A stretch of DNA of 18,141 bases from Patescibacteria group bacterium. Lineage in GTDB: Bacteria; Patescibacteriota; Patescibacteriia; Patescibacteriales; GWC2-42-12. The notes below the pieces were generated by a model. It was given only the letters and a program-made list of their open reading frames with translations, was not told the origin of the DNA and searched no databases. The DNA lies in the NCBI GenBank assembly GCA_028703305.1, contig JAQVNC010000015.1, positions 1-18,141 on the forward strand. Reading direction: 5' to 3'. Both the position numbers and the translations under genes were made by a program. Of the stretch, positions 13,052 through 17,545 are shown in pieces. Numbering within the stretch: position 1 is the stretch's first letter; each line of letters begins with the position of its first letter.

Positions 13052-13435
13052 TTATTTACAGCAATAGCGGCTGGATCCCATAGTTCCGCCGTTAAGACCG
13101 GTATTTGTGTTAAAATAACTGGTTTCAATCATATCGCTCGCTCCCTGATTTGTAAATCCCGACGGACAATCCGGCGGAGTGCAGGTACAGCTACCACTGC
13201 TGCTGGAAGCCCATCTGCAGGAACAATCAGCCTTGACGCAGCCGCCGCCCGAGGCTTCCAGCATATCAACTAAAGCATTCCAATTGGTTTCGCTTAACGA
13301 GCCGCTGTCGCCGGTTTTAGCATCATTCCAAGTAGCGAAGACAATAGTGGCGCCCACGGCAAGAAATAGCCCAATTAACAAAAACAGCAAATTTAAAAAA
13401 GTCATATTAAACGTTTTTTTTGTAAAAAATTTCAT
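13052..13435 (-). CDS. Small secreted or membrane-anchored Cys-rich protein (127 aa, 8 Cys)
   Basis: Hydrophobic N-terminus ([21 protein letters not shown], possible cleavage after VFA). Cys at 66, 71, 73, 83, 85, 90, 125 and 126, in Gly/Ser-rich context. It is the last ORF of the pilin-like block. The start could instead be Met11 (13405). Confidence 0.55.
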
Positions 13436-13488
13436 AGATTTATTATATTAATTAATTATTATTTATATTTTAATTAAATTTATAACTA

Positions 13489-14085
13489 TTAAAATAAGCA
13501 GCTGAAATTCCAAGGAAAAGCCATGGGAAAAACAAAATTGCAACCTGCCGGCGGAGCGGGTTCGCAAGCTCCGTCTACGCACGATTCGCCGTCGCCGCAA
13601 GAGCCGCAAGAACCGCCGCAGCCGTCATCTCCGCAAACTTTACCGGTACAATCCGGCGTACAAACAGGAAGTTCGCTGACTAAATATGTGCTTTCCACCG
13701 ATCTTTTAGCGCCGGCATAAATGCCAATTGATTTAAAAGTAACATAAGACGTTGAACTGGCATAATTTACCTGATAAGCGCTATTGTTGCCAAGATCAGC
13801 CAGGCTAAAAACATTATCGGTATCTACGTCAGGTAAAGCATAACTGTTTTTTCTGGCTTCCCATAAAGCCCGCTCCATACCGGCTTCGGATGCGAAATAT
13901 GCCAGGTTTGAATAACCGGCCAAACGGTTCATCTTTATGCCGGCTAAAACCAACTCGGCGGCGCCTAAAGTAATAATTAAAATACCGGATAAAATAAACA
14001 AAGTTAAAAGTAAAATTACGCCTTTTTGATTTTTTATATTATTATAAAATAAATTCATATTGAAAAATTTTTTAGGAGCCTTCAT
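13489..14085 (-). CDS. PilX/GspK-like pseudopilin lacking Glu+5, with a C-terminal Cys-rich module
   Basis: KNQKG|VILLLTLFILSGILIITLGAA is a class III-like leader, but with Leu at +5. AYFASEAGMERAL resembles the PilX N-terminal domain. There are 10 Cys in residues 142-196. The ATG at 14085 overlaps the upstream stop by 14 nt; the alternative Met10 is at 14058. Confidence 0.65.
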   Translation of the reverse strand: MKAPKKFFNMNLFYNNIKNQKGVILLLTLFILSGILIITLGAAELVLAGIKMNRLAGYSNLAYFASEAGMERALWEARKNSYALPDVDTDNVFSLADLGNNSAYQVNYASSTSYVTFKSIGIYAGAKRSVESTYLVSELPVCTPDCTGKVCGDDGCGGSCGSCGDGESCVDGACEPAPPAGCNFVFPMAFPWNFSCLF

Positions 14086-14665
14086 AATACCTTGAAGAAA
14101 CCGTCATTTGAATTTTCATTCTCTGCTCATGTATCGCCTGCCCGACAGCTTTAACATCTACTAACATAGTAACGTAAGGCTGAATACCGGGCAAAGCGCC
14201 AATTAAATCATCATTCACGTAAAATTTTAAATTGCTGACTTCAATTTTTGCCGGAGTAATAAAACCTTCAACATTGCCGGCATCAGACTCGGCCATTATC
14301 TTAAGGCGATTATCTTCCAGATAATAAACCACGCAATTGCCATATTGATTTTTAAAATAAAGCTTGCTATTATCGCCGGTTGTATTAAAAACTTTAAAAA
14401 CCGCGGTCGGCGGCACGCTAAACATATCTTCGCAATCATGATTGCTAATTCCCGCCATTCTGATTTCTTTGCTTATTTTTTCCATGGCGTATCTCATGCT
14501 CTCTTGCACGTTTTGCGCGCTGATAGAGCTTCTTTGCCCGTCAATTACCATTTTAAAAATTCCGGTCGCGACTAACATTAGAACGGAAAAAATCGCTACC
14601 GCGACTATTAATTCCAGCAAACTTACGCCTTTTTCAGCTTTAAATTTTTTTATAAATAAACTCAT
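14072..14665 (-). CDS. Prepilin-type pseudopilin, PilW/GspJ-like
   Basis: KAEKG|VSLLELIVAVAIFSVLMLVATGIF has Gly-1, Glu+5 and a hydrophobic helix. The 197-aa size and its position after a PilV-like gene fit PilW/GspJ. Confidence 0.72.
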   Translation of the reverse strand: MSLFIKKFKAEKGVSLLELIVAVAIFSVLMLVATGIFKMVIDGQRSSISAQNVQESMRYAMEKISKEIRMAGISNHDCEDMFSVPPTAVFKVFNTTGDNSKLYFKNQYGNCVVYYLEDNRLKIMAESDAGNVEGFITPAKIEVSNLKFYVNDDLIGALPGIQPYVTMLVDVKAVGQAIHEQRMKIQMTVSSRYYEGS

Positions 14666-14681
14666 AATAACAATTTATTAC

Positions 14682-15303: not shown

Positions 15304-15837
15304 TTAATCCGTGTCAATTAAGCCGAAAAAATTAACCGAGACTTGAGCCGTTGAATTATTAATATTTTCTTTTAAAACGATTTCCGCGGCCGCGTTGCTT
15401 AAACCATTGATATAAGTTATTGGATCAGGCGGAAAAAAAACAATATCAACCGTATCGGCCGGACTTAAAGAATCTATGGTTATGCCGGCCGGTAAAGTTT
15501 TAGTCTCTACGGCTTCGCTTGCGTCATATGCCTGATCGCCGTTAGGCGCGTTTTTATCGGCAAAAATAATATAACGCGTCGGATCGGTTAAATCAAAATG
15601 CACGCCCCAGCCGCCGCCAGGCGTAGTAACGCCGTCATAAGTTTTTGAACCCAAGCTGTAATTTTGCGCCAGCCTGATATCTGAAGCTAATTTCTGTTTT
15701 ATCACGCCGAGTTCCGAACGCTTATTGGTATCATGGTAATTAACCATAAACAAGCCGCTCATCATCACAACTATAAAAATACTGACCGTTAATTCAATTA
15801 AGGTAAATCCTGATAAATTTTTAGCTTGTTTTTTCAT
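15304..15837 (-). CDS. Prepilin-type pseudopilin, FimT/FimU/GspH-like
   Basis: The canonical N-methylation motif is KNLSG|FTLIELTVSIFIVVMMSG. The following KQKLASDIRLAQNYSL resembles the GspH/FimT helix. Confidence 0.8.
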   Translation of the reverse strand: MKKQAKNLSGFTLIELTVSIFIVVMMSGLFMVNYHDTNKRSELGVIKQKLASDIRLAQNYSLGSKTYDGVTTPGGGWGVHFDLTDPTRYIIFADKNAPNGDQAYDASEAVETKTLPAGITIDSLSPADTVDIVFFPPDPITYINGLSNAAAEIVLKENINNSTAQVSVNFFGLIDTD

Positions 15838-15846
15838 TGATTTATT

Positions 15847-15881
15847 AAGACGTCCGACGTCTCCAAGGCGTCGGACGTCTT
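15847..15881 (-). other. Perfect 13-bp GC-rich stem-loop 9 nt upstream of the first pilin ATG
   Basis: AAGACGTCCGACG (15847-15859), 9-nt loop, CGTCGGACGTCTT (15869-15881). No U-run follows on either strand, so it is not a canonical terminator. Confidence 0.6.
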
Positions 15882-15907
15882 TAGCTCGCTAAATTGCTGA
15901 TAATTTT

Positions 15908-17545
15908 CTATTCCGGCTTAACCTCTTTCCATTTTGGCAGCTTGGCGCTAACATTAATCGTCTCTGAAGTTGAAACATAATAGCCGTCGTTATCAGTTAC
16001 TTTTAAAGCCACTGTGAAACTGCCGGCCGAATTAAAAGTTATAATCGGCGAAGTGGTGGCCGAATCATTGATGCTGGCTCCGGCCGTAGCGGTCCAAAGG
16101 TAAGTACAAAGTTCATCCGAACAATCAACCGCCGTATCCGGCGCCGCGGCTAGATACACTTTACTGATATTAGTAAAGCTAACTTGCTCGCTTTTACTAG
16201 GATTATTCGGAGAATAAGTAAAATCCGGTTCAGGCATTTTATGCTTATAGGTGGTAAAAGTTGGGACTACGCCGTCATCATTATCCGTATCCGGATTAGT
16301 GTCATAATCCTTGATAGCCGAAGCTATCTCGCTATCATCCCATACTTGAACCGACCATTTATAACCTTGATTATAGTCCAGCAAAGCGCTGTCTAGTATA
16401 TATTGGCAGACGCAATCGCCCGGACTAACGCAGCCGGTCGCGCCGTTTTCCAGGCAAATAGTATTATCAATTTTACAATCGGCCGAGGGCGTCTGATAGC
16501 CGGTGCATACGCCCGTATCTAACACCGCGGTATCATCGGCTTTCTTTACGATAACTTGATAAGCCGAGCCGTAGGAGCCGGTATCCGCGTCAACCATATT
16601 AAATTGCAAATTGGCGCGCAAGGCGCCGCTAACCGCGGCCTGGGCATAAGTCCAGTTAGGCGCGGTTAGTCCGGAAACCTCCGGGGCCTGATTAACCGAT
16701 ACGAATTTAACTTTATAATCAACTGTGCCGCAGCTTGAATCGTTATTGCAATTAAAACTTACCCAGCCAACCTGTTCGCCATAAGCCCAGCCCTCAAATT
16801 CATTGGTGGTAAAATTTATTTTTACTTGGCTGGCGCCGGCCGGAGCAAAATCAATCCAGCCGGCCTGTTCGCCATAAGCCGTACCGCTTAAATTGCCAAA
16901 GCCGTCATTTAAAACGCCGCCGCCGGCCGGAAATAAATTAATCCAGCCTAATTGTTCCGAGTAGGCATAGCCTTCAAGATGGTCGGTATAGACGGTAGTG
17001 GTAGCCATGTCCGGATTATTAAACTTAATCCAGCCAACCTGCTCGCTAAAAGCATAGTCTTCGGCATAACCTAATAATATTTGCTGGGTAACGCCATAAC
17101 CGATACCGGAAAAACTAATCCAGCCGACACTCTCACCCCAGGCATAGCCGGAAAAAACTCCGTTTTCATCAACGCTCACGCCGCCGCCGGCCGGCGCGAA
17201 ATCAATATAGCCGGTTTGCTCGCCCCAGGCATAGCCGGAAAGCGTACCGCCGCTATTTAATACCCGGTAAAAATTCGCCGCGCAAGATCCGCCGTCAGTA
17301 TTAGCGCAATCCATGCTAATCCAGCCCAGATTCTCGCTCCAGGCCCAGCCGGTTAATTTATCGGCTTCAACCATGGTTTCATAGCCCTCCGGCGCCAGAT
17401 TTATCCAGCCGGTTAACTCGCCCCAGGCATAGCCGGAAGCCTGATCGGCCGCGGACGCGGTAAAAGAATGGCTGTTATATATCAGAATTGCCACAAGCGC
17501 TGACAAAGCCAATAAAAATGAAAATTTTAAATATTTTTTAAGCAT
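15908..17545 (-). CDS. Secreted multidomain protein: Sec signal, 8 aromatic repeats, Fn3-like domain with a Cys-rich insert, C-terminal PKD-like domain
   Basis: Signal peptide LLALSALVAILIY...FTASA|AD. Eight copies of G[YW]A[WYF][GS]ExxG[WY]Ix[FLM]. The C-terminus FTYSP...YLWTATAG...FTVALKVTDNDGY fits the PKD pattern. Confidence 0.85.
   Translation of the reverse strand: MLKKYLKFSFLLALSALVAILIYNSHSFTASAADQASGYAWGELTGWINLAPEGYETMVEADKLTGWAWSENLGWISMDCANTDGGSCAANFYRVLNSGGTLSGYAWGEQTGYIDFAPAGGGVSVDENGVFSGYAWGESVGWISFSGIGYGVTQQILLGYAEDYAFSEQVGWIKFNNPDMATTTVYTDHLEGYAYSEQLGWINLFPAGGGVLNDGFGNLSGTAYGEQAGWIDFAPAGASQVKINFTTNEFEGWAYGEQVGWVSFNCNNDSSCGTVDYKVKFVSVNQAPEVSGLTAPNWTYAQAAVSGALRANLQFNMVDADTGSYGSAYQVIVKKADDTAVLDTGVCTGYQTPSADCKIDNTICLENGATGCVSPGDCVCQYILDSALLDYNQGYKWSVQVWDDSEIASAIKDYDTNPDTDNDDGVVPTFTTYKHKMPEPDFTYSPNNPSKSEQVSFTNISKVYLAAAPDTAVDCSDELCTYLWTATAGASINDSATTSPIITFNSAGSFTVALKVTDNDGYYVSTSETINVSAKLPKWKEVKPE
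16751..17434 (-). repeat. In-frame coding repeat array (8 units, 28-38 aa period) inside the 545-aa gene
   Basis: Repeat cores start at residues 38, 66, 104, 133, 163, 192, 221 and 252. DNA-level identical 22-mers lie at 17218-17239 and 17417-17438. Identical 17-mers lie at 16914-16930 and 17177-17193. Confidence 0.85.

Follow-up and report, generated by a model that had tools for sequence, protein, structure and literature searches.

The six-gene block studied here is rather likely to form the distal ‘priming/tip’ module of a type IVa-like pilus, with a 545-aa protein docked by its C-terminal tail on a PilX-like cap pilin. It lies in the window, i.e. the whole stretch of 18,141 nucleotides of DNA from an ultrasmall bacterium of the Patescibacteria (CPR) that was analysed, and encodes the 545-aa protein, four prepilin-type proteins and a 127-aa protein with eight cysteines (Table 1). 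As a pilus module it is ordinary for Patescibacteria, and the 545-aa protein is probably an undescribed analogue of PilY1 that is not homologous to it. An earlier reading of this DNA (the sequence-only reading) had named these six ORFs, all of which are present on the minus strand at the positions it gave.

Table 1. Features of the six-gene block and its upstream flank, in window coordinates (a slash marks the predicted cleavage site)
Feature	Position	Strand	Basis or remark
Six-gene block	13052-17545	-	545-aa protein, four prepilin-type genes, 127-aa 8-Cys protein
127-aa secreted 8-Cys protein	13052..13435	-	NCBI call, 117 aa
Minor pilin 4, 198 aa, PilX/GspK-like cap pilin	13489..14085	-	Leader ...KNQKG/VILLL, no Glu+5
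10-Cys C-terminal module of the cap pilin, CTPDCTGKVCGDDGCGGSCGSCGDGESCVDGAC...	13492..13671	-	Family alignment; lineage-specific
Minor pilin 3, 197 aa, PilW/GspJ/PpdC-like	14072..14665	-	Leader ...KAEKG/VSLLE
Minor pilin 2, 170 aa from ATG, PilV/GspI-like	14790..15302	-	Leader MKIKKIYNNSG/ISILE
Minor pilin 1, 177 aa, FimU/GspH-like	15304..15837	-	Leader MKKQAKNLSG/FTLIE
545-aa secreted surface protein (‘REP’)	15908..17545	-	ORF
C-terminal decapeptide LPKWKEVKPE	15911..15940	-	Most conserved stretch of the 545-aa protein
Eight 13-aa motifs G[YW]A[WY]xExxGWIxF, aa 38-264	16754..17434	-	Spacing ~29 aa
Divergent intergenic region, AT-rich	17546..17646		Upstream of the 545-aa gene
Divergent truncated ORF, 165 aa seen, N-terminal TM protein	17647..18141	+	Translation

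The minor-pilin set and its cap

Minor pilins 1-4 are prepilin-type proteins and follow the conserved order FimU/GspH-, PilV/GspI-, PilW/GspJ- and PilX/GspK-like, as the sequence-only reading had proposed and as the family profiles agree. Their four class III leaders are more than a chance occurrence, given the profile matches and the conservation of Gly-1 and Glu+5 across the orthologue families, where both residues show little or no variation in the alignments of minor pilins 1-3. N_methyl/prepilin profiles match three of the four window pilins, and the models proposed for checking the set (N_methyl, GspH, PilX_N and PilW/GspJ-type) all match pilin families.

For minor pilin 1, the window protein is matched by N_methyl (E 5e-4), GspH (PF12019; E 1.8e-3, aa 48-169) and TIGR01708 gspH (2.4e-6); within its family, Glu+5 is invariant, and N_methyl matches 33/33 and GspH 8/33 members. 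Minor pilin 2, which would be 175 aa long if started at an upstream TTG, is matched by TIGR02523 PilV (E 2e-7), as are all 34 family members, 23 of which are also matched by gspI; these matches are confined to the first ~55 residues and stay under the curated cut-offs. Minor pilin 3 exceeds the N_methyl threshold with 28 bits (31/32 family members are matched), is matched at the N-terminus only by PRK10557 (PpdC; 6e-9) and gspJ (4.5e-4), and carries a Cys pair, C78 and C111, conserved in the family alignment. The N-terminal helix of the minor pilins matches solved pilins; of their globular parts, GspH was matched weakly, and profile and similarity searches gave no match to GspI, GspJ or GspK.

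The fourth member, called by NCBI as a 189-aa protein starting at Met10, had been singled out for its lack of Glu+5, and this residue is indeed absent from all 30 members of the aligned family. PilX_N (PF14341) matches ten of these 30 (best E 6e-7), and some members have been named PilX by JGI. Its AlphaFold2 (AF2) model is a lollipop fold with a helix at aa 12-70 and four strands at aa 80-126 (pLDDT >90), for which Foldseek returned no significant PDB match, pilin included. The pilin core ends at ~aa 137 (relatives are typically ~125 aa).

The Cys-rich module that had been suspected of being grafted onto the cap pilin stands out as such in the family alignment. This 10-Cys module, modelled with low confidence and without a match in Pfam or NCBIfam, is present in L013, L017, L019, P0121, P0122, P0124, P0125 and P0126, and in the cap pilins of other relatives its place is taken by TSP1, Fib_succ_major, dockerin or Gly-rich modules. 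Two kinds of module, Gly_rich_2 and Fib_succ_major, are grafted both C-terminally on cap-pilin homologues and N-terminally on homologues of the 545-aa protein.

The 545-aa protein and its C-terminal tail

The 545-aa protein starts with a Sec-type signal peptide (aa 1-33, ...FTASA/AD), and its repeats are followed by an Ig/FN3-like region (~aa 285-430), a PKD domain (~aa 440-533) and a conserved C-terminal tail. The PKD domain claimed earlier falls just under the Pfam threshold (23.1 versus 23.5 bits, the sole match) and is backed by the AF2 model, in which the C-terminal half reaches pLDDT >90 and the PKD domain >95. Foldseek found generic tandem FN3/Ig folds; with matches to FN3, Ig and PKD only, the protein bears out the claim that a PilY1 homologue is absent. 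It shows no sequence or fold likeness to PilY1/PilC and no beta-propeller. Each of the 13-aa motifs is modelled as a beta-hairpin, and the window protein has eight copies versus usually three to four in relatives; we propose that this region is the variable, outward-facing part of the protein.

Conservation rises along the chain, i.e. identity to relatives is 25 % in the repeats, 46 % in the Ig region, 51 % in the PKD domain and 76 % in the tail, where L536, P537, W539 and E541 are invariant among 33 sequences. The tail also marks the association with pili: 41 of 52 tail-bearing relatives lie in type IV pilus (T4P) loci versus 2 of 25 tail-less ones (Fisher p = 2e-9). In L019 the domain before it is FN3 instead of PKD, and in L012 the same tail ends an unrelated, differently built FN3 protein encoded in tandem upstream of the cassette. 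It is unpaired in the AF2 model of the monomer, and some distant homologues have a hydrophobic C-terminal segment beyond it.

At least 787 homologues of the 545-aa protein were found, nearly all in Patescibacteria, with 436 relatives in GTDB species genomes. Of the 44 tail-bearing homologues whose downstream sequence spans 2.5 kb or more, 33 are directly followed by minor pilins (at least three of the four families); the 11 without them are mostly distant. The association persists across lineages with only 25-30 % identity to the window protein. This Sec-type protein is a conserved partner of the minor-pilin set in many Patescibacteria lineages, in line with the sequence-only reading, and by analogy it is a candidate tip-associated adhesin that may act as a functional counterpart of PilY1/PilC/MshQ.

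The pilus locus and its sub-lineage-specific parts

In most relatives, pilB, RR, pilT, pilC, two pilin genes, a WzyC/TPR gene and pilD lie directly upstream, followed by the whole block. The sequence-only reading had pictured the cassette as self-contained, lacking assembly genes in cis. An ORF survey confirmed that the 18-kb contig contains no pilus assembly genes, but the contig stops only 596 bp upstream of the 545-aa gene. The picture itself is not supported by the relatives: among the 26 related cassettes for which 4 kb or more of upstream sequence is available, 20 carry pilB/pilT/pilC/pilD in the same locus. In L002, L005 and the P0124 contig, pilB/RR/pilT/pilC/pilins/WzyC-TPR/pilD directly precede the cassette and ligA-gatC-gatA-dsbA follow it, as they also do in the window, with ligA as the next gene. 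A close relative that shares the ligA...dnaG-rpoD backbone carries pilT-pilC-pilins-pilD immediately upstream.

In the sub-lineage of the window, the position upstream of the cassette that pilD occupies in most relatives is taken by an inverted gene. This divergent ORF is orthologous (E 4e-63) to the L086 gene that diverges from the closest relative of the 545-aa protein, and weak matches upstream of the 545-aa gene in L003, L020, L085 and L036 keep its orientation in these other loci. The intergenic region in between likely holds the promoter of the cassette in this genome, judging from its sequence; it contains a promoter-like site (17631-17603, minus strand) that is a match to consensus only.

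The 127-aa protein is an accessory of the cassette that is specific to one sub-lineage. Its family (51 representatives among 1.84 billion proteins) shares an N-terminal hydrophobic segment, the motif ATW[DN]xAKTGxSGxLSExNWNxLV and a C-terminal CCx ending. In a scan centred on this family itself, the gene adjoins the 545-aa gene or minor pilins in 11 of ~16 informative loci, and only 4 of the ~34 cassettes found via the 545-aa protein contain it.

Proposed docking at the pilus tip and competing readings

Following what is established for type IV filaments, the four leaders would be cleaved after Gly by a prepilin peptidase whose gene lies in another part of the genome, and the minor pilins would form a membrane initiation complex that primes polymerization of the major pilin by PilB/PilC and afterwards stays at the pilus tip. 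In PilC/PilY1/MshQ, the final ~10 residues complete the sheet of a PilK-family protein (PMC13533445), and we propose that the decapeptide docks on the PilX-like cap in a similar way. By analogy with these proteins (PMC13533445), the 545-aa protein would be exported by Sec, lose its signal peptide and, through LPKWKEVKPE as a proline-flanked amphipathic strand, extend the four-stranded sheet of the cap by one beta-strand, which would fasten it onto the pilus tip. The Ig-like and PKD domains would then form a stalk that exposes the eight aromatic hairpin repeats for binding. The Cys-rich module of the cap pilin and the 127-aa protein may have been added to this display platform in particular lineages. 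The part that the sequence-only reading gave the displayed cargo in host attachment or DNA capture is conjectural.

Synteny links the 545-aa protein to pilus genes and leaves its location unspecified. It might be an envelope accessory of the machine and not tip-borne, e.g. a wall- or S-layer-associated guide or anchor, with its aromatic GW-type hairpin repeats binding the cell's own envelope polymers and its tail contacting another machine component. In most family members the N-terminus carries a long conserved hydrophobic stretch (consensus ...KTWxITxLMFVIAFGLSLAIVYYEF) that could be a membrane anchor instead of a cleaved signal, although the window protein resembles one with a cleavable Sec signal (ASA/AD). 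Relatives that consist of repeats only are found beyond pilus loci and beyond Patescibacteria, as expected for a general envelope- or glycan-binding module; yet the repeats are the least conserved part and the most variable in copy number, which fits a binding surface that faces outwards better than a fixed contact with the machine. No PilMNO-type alignment genes were found in the pilus loci of the relatives examined, so that an accessory still to be identified would be plausible. Since the gene is grouped with the priming pilins rather than with pilB/pilC, and the same add-on modules occur on the cap pilin, tip-located by analogy, we consider this location unlikely.

Gene order alone is weak evidence in such small genomes, because ligA, gatCAB, dsbA and maf, clearly unrelated to pili, are equally syntenic with the cassette. 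The 545-aa and 127-aa proteins could accordingly be independent surface or secreted proteins that share an operon and promoter and do not interact physically, as the tail-bearing homologues without adjacent minor pilins might suggest. That the association tracks the tail specifically, is kept at low identity and where the upstream context differs, and extends to L012, where an unrelated protein ending in this tail occupies the equivalent place, makes this quite improbable. Still less credible is a short pseudopilus for secretion (T2SS-like) or DNA uptake (Com-like), with the neighbouring Sec proteins as cargo or the adjacent ligA as a reflection of DNA uptake: the profile matches are common to GspH/I/J and ComGD/GE/GF models, and DNA uptake has been proposed for Patescibacteria pili, but ligA-gatC-gatA-dsbA-maf is ordinary housekeeping synteny, neither a secretin nor GspC/L/M was detected in any locus examined, and the loci of relatives contain genes for a PilT-type retraction ATPase, two major pilins and a WzyC/TPR (TfpO-like) protein. 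In Saccharibacteria, moreover, host binding and twitching motility are served by two different T4P systems, of which the former does not contribute to competency according to a section heading of the published account.

A precedent for the proposed tip module comes from Saccharibacteria, whose pili bind the host via PilX proteins that bear additional modules.

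Pilus locus in relatives and layout of the contig

In the sequence-only reading, the minor-pilin cassette was taken for a self-contained module without assembly genes in cis. None of the genes for PilB, PilC, PilD, PilT and a major pilin lies within the 18-kb contig; in relatives, all five are located directly upstream of the orthologous cassette. The typical locus, as read in the close relatives L002, L014, L010, L011 and L020 and in the contig of the cap-pilin homologue P0124, runs from pilB through a response regulator gene, pilT, pilC, two pilin genes and a gene for a WzyC/TPR protein to pilD, followed by the 545-aa homologue with the four minor-pilin genes H, V, W and X, and then by ligA, gatC, gatA, dsbA and maf. 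The cap pilin on the P0124 contig shares 69% identity with that of the window; this contig continues with the ZIP gene, a 104-aa gene, dnaG and rpoD and is thus collinear with the backbone of the window, yet harbours the assembly genes in cis.

A tail-bearing homologue of the 545-aa protein (i.e. one with the C-terminal decapeptide, LPKWKEVKPE in the window) is directly followed by three or more of the four minor-pilin families in 33 of the 44 loci with at least 2.5 kb of downstream sequence, which bears out the expected co-conservation of this gene with the pilins. Regarding the assembly genes, 26 such cassettes have 4 kb or more of sequence upstream; pilB/T/C/D were found in the locus for 20 of these, contradicting the idea of a self-contained module, and were absent from six. 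In the window, just 596 bp are available upstream of the 545-aa gene, made up of an AT-rich spacer of 101 bp and a plus-strand ORF that diverges from the cassette and leaves the contig. The closest relative (P0002 in locus L086, 74% identical) has a divergent gene orthologous to this truncated ORF upstream (E 4e-63), and then a Fic gene. The window is a minority arrangement, and its apparent lack of assembly genes, although tempting to misread, is no evidence for a self-contained module, since the short contig and local rearrangement explain it. By inference, the PilD and the motor that the cassette needs must be encoded elsewhere. Longer sequence of this organism was sought, but the exact-protein match was a 2.3-kb contig only, and no JGI metagenome contained an exact 40-mer taken from the end of the contig.

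All substantial genes of the window except the truncated ORF at the far end are encoded on the minus strand. Start sites vary with the annotation, i.e. the second pilin has 170 aa from its ATG or 175 aa from the TTG chosen by the ORF lister, and NCBI has shorter versions of the fourth pilin (189 aa, from Met10) and of the Cys-rich protein (117 aa, from Met11).

Features of the window, in the direction of transcription of the minor-pilin genes
Feature	Coordinates	Strand	Remarks
Truncated divergent ORF	17647-18141	plus	member of a family of ~195-aa TM proteins
545-aa protein	15908-17545	minus	locus tag PHF50_03935
Spacer between 545-aa gene and first pilin gene	15838-15907	minus	perfect 13-bp inverted repeat, AAGACGTCCGACG...CGTCGGACGTCTT
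Four prepilin-type genes		minus	177, 170, 197 and 198 aa; next after the 545-aa gene
124-bp spacer between second and third pilin genes	14666-14789	minus	two hairpins, one being AAAAACCTTTT-TAG-AAAAGGTTTTT with a T-run after it
Cys-rich 127-aa protein	13052-13435	minus	after the fourth pilin gene
Block ligA-gatC-gatA-dsbA-maf	7441-13014	minus
ligA	start probably ATG near 13014	minus	downstream of the 127-aa gene
136-aa GxxExxY-type ORF	10511-10921	minus	between ligA and gatC; low-GC patch (0.34 vs ~0.43)
gatC, gatA		minus	in this order
DsbA-like gene	8022-8675	minus
maf		minus
tRNA-Ser
P-type ATPase, ZIP transporter, 104-aa ORF, dnaG, rpoD			beyond tRNA-Ser, in this order

The inverted repeat and the hairpins in the two spacers may be attenuators or RNA-stability elements setting the stoichiometry of the operon. 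The family of the divergent ORF has a member in L086 (3138-3725), and weak relatives are found co-oriented with and just upstream of the 545-aa gene in L020, L085, L003 and L036, the gene being inverted in the sub-lineage of the window. On the other side of the cassette, the block from ligA to maf is located directly 3' of the pilus locus in many Patescibacteria lineages (L002, L005, L014, L020 and others). Since different small inserts occupy the place between gatC and ligA in relatives (169 aa in L003, 131 aa in L006, 228 + 136 aa in L008), this site suggests an insertion hot spot within an otherwise rigid backbone.

Further genes were observed between the assembly genes and the 545-aa homologue. 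A ~770-aa protein combining Wzy_C (O-antigen-ligase-like) and TPR domains is encoded between the two pilin genes and pilD in L002 (4789-7098), L014, L020 and the P0124 contig, and resembles the TfpO/PglL-type pilin O-glycosyltransferases. L003 (1511-4774 and 7221-7991) and L019 (7573-9978) encode, between pilD and the 545-aa homologue, proteins with intramolecular-chaperone domains of the tail-fibre type (Peptidase_S74, with a weak match to Peptidase_G2 IMC), possibly additional fibre-like proteins of the cell surface with a link to the pilus locus. Genes of ~326 and ~174 aa upstream of the 545-aa homologue in some loci were considered as PilM and PilN and rejected, as they encode FemAB and YbeY.

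Minor pilins and the modular cap

The four leaders are exactly as first described, i.e. ...NLSG↓FTLIE, ...NNSG↓ISILE, ...AEKG↓VSLLE and ...NQKG↓VILLL. Three of the four genes encode a class III leader, with a short basic leader, G↓F/I/V-x-x-x-E and a hydrophobic helix, and the alignments of pilins 1-3 (32-34 orthologues each) show few or no exceptions to Gly-1 and Glu+5. Pilins 1-3 are matched by N_methyl/TIGR02532 profiles, the window proteins scoring 19.9, 18.0 and 28.0 bits, respectively, at an N_methyl threshold of 21.2 bits. The profile evidence from the window proteins alone is modest; therefore, orthologues were collected from 80 related genome loci and whole families were tested, and the profile searches then gave the anticipated family-level matches to N_methyl, GspH, PilV and PilX_N.

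For pilin 1, N_methyl matches 33/33 orthologues and GspH (PF12019) 8/33 at E below 0.1 (best 4e-4); the window protein reaches 19.2 bits with PF12019 over aa 48-169 (cut-off 21) and 27.7 bits with TIGR01708 at the N-terminus only (cut-off 80). Pilin 2 is matched by the PilV profile TIGR02523 over its first ~55 residues only (E 2e-7, 31 bits vs a cut-off of 52.2), as are 34/34 of its orthologues (best E 1.5e-9), 23/34 also being matched by GspI. The third family is matched by N_methyl in 31/32 cases. Pilin 3 of the window shows N-terminal matches only, i.e. to PRK10557 (PpdC; 35.5 bits vs 120) and gspJ (20 bits vs 64.85), with no match to a PilW/GspJ/PpdC globular-domain profile and the helix alone in the PDB profile search; its designation as PilW-like therefore rests on size, operon position and leader.

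Against PDB sequences, the profiles of all four families match the N-terminal helix of solved pilins, without any match to a GspH/I/J/K globular domain. The H/I/J/K labels are putative, resting on leaders, order, size and weak-to-moderate profile matches and not on demonstrated globular-domain homology, since the structural search described below gave no significant match and the PDB profiles match the helix only.

As proposed, the fourth pilin lacks Glu+5, as do GspK and PilX: it keeps the Gly and the N-terminal helix and has Leu at this position, and position +5 is always Leu, Met or similar in the family. PilX_N (PF14341) matches 10/30 cap-pilin orthologues (best E 6e-7), and the family carries the motif AYFASEAGMERALWE, i.e. 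the PilX_N helix motif (..AFxAAEAG.E..). The cap pilin of the window itself has no match to PF14341 at E <= 1, nor to any other Pfam/NCBIfam profile. The sequence-only reading had staked its case on a pilin fold beyond the N-terminal helix, and the AF2 model of the cap pilin (75 homologues) is indeed a lollipop, with a 59-residue helix (12-70) and a four-stranded antiparallel sheet (80-126) at pLDDT above 90, the Cys-rich extension being poorly defined. Since Foldseek found nothing significant in the PDB for this model (best pilin-like match 9a1f_R, E 0.26), the general lollipop fold alone is shown.

The C-terminal 10-Cys module (CxPDCxGKxCGDDGCGGSCGSC...) is common to a few relatives, i.e. 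L013, L017, L019 and the cap-pilin homologues P0121-P0126, and other relatives harbour TSP1, Fib_succ_major, dockerin-like or Gly-rich modules in its place. As the C-terminal module is exchanged between relatives, the cap is a modular pilin like PilX1 and PilX2 of Saccharibacteria. None of ten extended homologues carries the tail of the 545-aa protein in cis. PilB and PilC of Streptococcus sanguinis, which are modular type IV pilins of Gram-positive bacteria with a C-terminal functional module on a pilin core, are a similar case, although their modules are different and the carrier here is the cap subunit lacking Glu+5. The DsbA-like gene downstream may matter for the Cys-rich modules and for the conserved pair of cysteines (C78, C111) in the PilW-like pilin.

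The pili of the Saccharibacteria strain TM7x contain PilV, PilW and PilX minor pilins, with pilB, pilC, pilD and pilT conserved, and their PilX-type proteins lack a PilD signal and have extra C-terminal domains, PilX2 being needed for host binding (PMC12206443). Both groups belong to the same superphylum and have module-bearing PilX-type proteins, with a beta-propeller or jelly roll in Saccharibacteria and a Cys-rich knot in the window; in contrast, a counterpart of the tail-bearing 545-aa protein is not described there (PMC12206443). The lineage of the window is not Saccharibacteria, its nearest named relatives being Falkowbacteria and Parcubacteria MAGs.

The 545-aa protein and its C-terminal tail

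The 545-aa protein starts with a typical Sec signal (MLKKYLK, a hydrophobic stretch and FTASA↓AD). It contains eight copies of a 13-residue repeat, G[YW]A[WY]xExxGWIxF, at ~29-residue spacing, each modelled as a beta-hairpin, as well as Ig/FN3-like and PKD domains modelled at pLDDT above 90, for which Foldseek returned generic FN3/Ig tandems only from the PDB. The absence of a PilY1-like gene noticed earlier was confirmed, as the 545-aa protein has no Pfam/NCBIfam match to PF05567 and its model consists of Ig/FN3-like and PKD domains. It is therefore not a member of the PilY1/PilC family, and any relation is one of functional analogy.

The family comprises at least 787 matches, almost all unnamed and from Patescibacteria, with 436 relatives among GTDB species genomes. 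Relatives have 3-4 repeat copies, degenerate in some, and some homologues have extra N-terminal modules, i.e. Gly_rich_2 (P0002) and Fib_succ_major (P0007). A swap of the entire N-terminal half in some lineages was considered and rejected, since degenerate versions of the same repeat are found there. Identity to relatives is 25% in the repeats, 46% in the Ig domain, 51% in the PKD domain and 76% in the last 12 residues. Residues L536, P537, W539 and E541 of the tail are invariant in 33 sequences, and its core KWKEVK, with alternating hydrophobic and charged residues, stands between two prolines; the tail is unpaired in the monomer model.

Possession of the tail follows the pilus genes: 41/52 tail-bearing homologues are located in pilus-gene loci vs 2/25 of the repeat-only, tail-less ones (Fisher p = 2e-9), which include proteins of Acidobacteria, Nitrospirales and Desulfobacterota. 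Outside the 545-aa family, the C-terminal motif was found once among the 4,929 ORFs of all loci collected, i.e. in a 635-aa Sec protein of Ig/FN3 domains in L012, encoded in tandem with and just upstream of a 545-aa family member and the first minor pilin. Judging from these sequences, the tail behaves as a portable module, since it ends the FN3 protein of L012 and, in L019, follows an FN3 instead of the PKD domain.

The minor-pilin cassette itself is ordinary and would be expected by a specialist, given that minor-pilin clusters and module-bearing PilX proteins have been described in Saccharibacteria (PMC12206443). The searchable literature yielded no description of the 545-aa family, of how tightly it is linked to the minor pilins, or of the invariant C-terminal tag, and these are probably new. 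The useful result is a conserved partner family with hundreds of members, in which variable repeats are combined with an invariant decapeptide tracking pilus loci.

Candidate tip docking and accessory secreted proteins

Few surface machines are conserved in Patescibacteria, type IV pili being one of them, and in those Saccharibacteria that have been cultured, host binding and motility are mediated by these pili. According to a 2026 study, the small beta-sheet of the PilK-family minor pilin is completed by the C-terminal ~10 residues of PilC/PilY1, and both pilus assembly and tip retention depend on this added strand; in GspK-type caps, the strand is supplied in cis (PMC13533445). Non-homologous tip proteins can share the docking mechanism, since MshQ, a non-homologue of PilY1, is predicted to dock likewise (PMC13533445). 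Because the Patescibacteria cassette has the matching parts, i.e. a minimal PilX/PilK-like cap (~125 aa in relatives; helix and four strands) that would receive the strand and a large Sec-exported neighbour with a variable N-terminus that would supply the near-invariant terminal peptide, we propose that the 545-aa protein may be a functional analogue of PilY1/MshQ, with its tail adding a beta-strand to complete the sheet of the cap pilin. It is possible, if still somewhat short of probable, that the 545-aa family is the Patescibacteria counterpart of PilY1/PilC, i.e. a non-homologous tip adhesin docking via its LPxW[KR]E[VI]K.. tag onto a minimal PilX-like cap. The occurrence of the same add-on modules (Gly-rich, Fib_succ_major) at the N-terminus of 545-aa homologues and the C-terminus of cap-pilin homologues hints at a display of both ends at one place.

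With the fimU-pilVWXY1(E) operon of type IVa pili (Pseudomonas, Myxococcus), which corresponds to pilHIJK and PilC in Neisseria, the cassette shares four prepilin-type genes arranged as H, I, J, K, the K/X member being without Glu+5, an adjoining gene for a large Sec-exported non-pilin whose N-terminal part varies and whose conserved C-terminal part ends, as in PilY1/PilC, with a ~10-residue peptide that is likewise conserved, and, in the relatives of the window, the linkage to pilB/pilT/pilC/pilD. In contrast, the gene for the large protein is located upstream of the pilins instead of after pilX, and the 545-aa protein has hairpin repeats, Ig-like and PKD domains instead of a beta-propeller or detectable homology to PilY1/PilC. 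The cap pilin is minimal and often has grafted modules, globular-domain homology to FimU/PilV/PilW/PilX is weak or undetectable, and the organism is presumably monoderm, without a secretin. MshQ, next to mshDOP of the Vibrio MSHA pilus, is likewise a large PilY1-unrelated protein beside pilIJK homologues, and its predicted docking onto the PilK homologue is via the extreme C-terminus (PMC13533445). Its domains differ from those of the 545-aa protein, for which docking is proposed, and its gene is located downstream of the pilins.

In the main rival explanation, the 545-aa protein would serve the pilus machine as an accessory in the cell envelope and not as a tip protein, considering that its aromatic GW-type repeats are similar in style to wall-binding repeat modules and that a long N-terminal hydrophobic segment is conserved in most members of the family. 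As ligA and gatCA are equally syntenic with the cassette, the 545-aa gene might also be an operon hitch-hiker only, which we regard as the weaker rival. The cassette further resembles GspH-I-J-K of the type II secretion system (T2SS) in the order of the four subunits, the capping of the fibre by a K subunit without Glu+5 and the weak profile matches to GspH, GspI and GspJ. However, a T2SS-like or Com-like system is unlikely, since relatives have pilT, two major-pilin genes and the TfpO-like WzyC/TPR gene, and neither GspD nor GspC/L/M was detected in the window or any related locus by precomputed Pfam labels or by reference-protein and Pfam searches; moreover, GspK is large and has its final strand in cis.

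If the decapeptide is a tip-docking strand, the recently described docking by beta-strand addition would also operate in a deep-branching monoderm lineage, where the adhesin is non-homologous, and the tag would mark pilus-tip-displayed proteins across the superphylum, including the differently built FN3 protein of L012. It would then offer a simple sequence tag to list host-attachment candidates of uncultured episymbionts in thousands of genomes. As a bolder extension, the family of the 127-aa protein and a second secreted family, here termed AWTEP, could be further non-canonical components of the tip structure.

The 127-aa family has 51 representatives among 1.84 billion proteins. It is characterized by the motif ATW[DN]xAKTGGSGxLSExNWNxLV and by an N-terminal hydrophobic segment that is conserved; the middle varies, and the C-terminus ends in CCx. 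The assumed co-conservation of its gene with the cassette held in a sub-lineage, but not across cassettes: the gene is present in 4/~34 cassettes located via the 545-aa protein, yet a scan centred on the 127-aa family found it adjoining the cassette in 11/~16 informative metagenome loci. The 127-aa protein is therefore a real but sub-lineage-specific accessory, its gene being placed immediately before the 545-aa gene or, as in the window, between the cap pilin and ligA. Its residues 28-88, i.e. the conserved N-terminal motif, match eleven EF-hand-like repeats of P0244, a eukaryote-like EF-hand repeat protein of 1404 aa, with a summed E of 4e-32. Kinship was rejected, as the canonical EF-hand loop positions are unaligned and the match is probably compositional, an effect of the summed repeats; a putative calcium-binding loop in the 127-aa protein is possible.

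The AWTEP family is encoded directly upstream of distant 545-aa homologues (L031, L041, L048, L049, L064, L068, L070, L079-L081, L010 and L085). In its members, a hydrophobic segment at the N-terminus is conserved and precedes AWTEPxxxPPxGNVxAP[LI]NxG..Q.K.G.L, a build like that of the 127-aa family, and the C-terminal parts vary greatly in length (157-933 aa).
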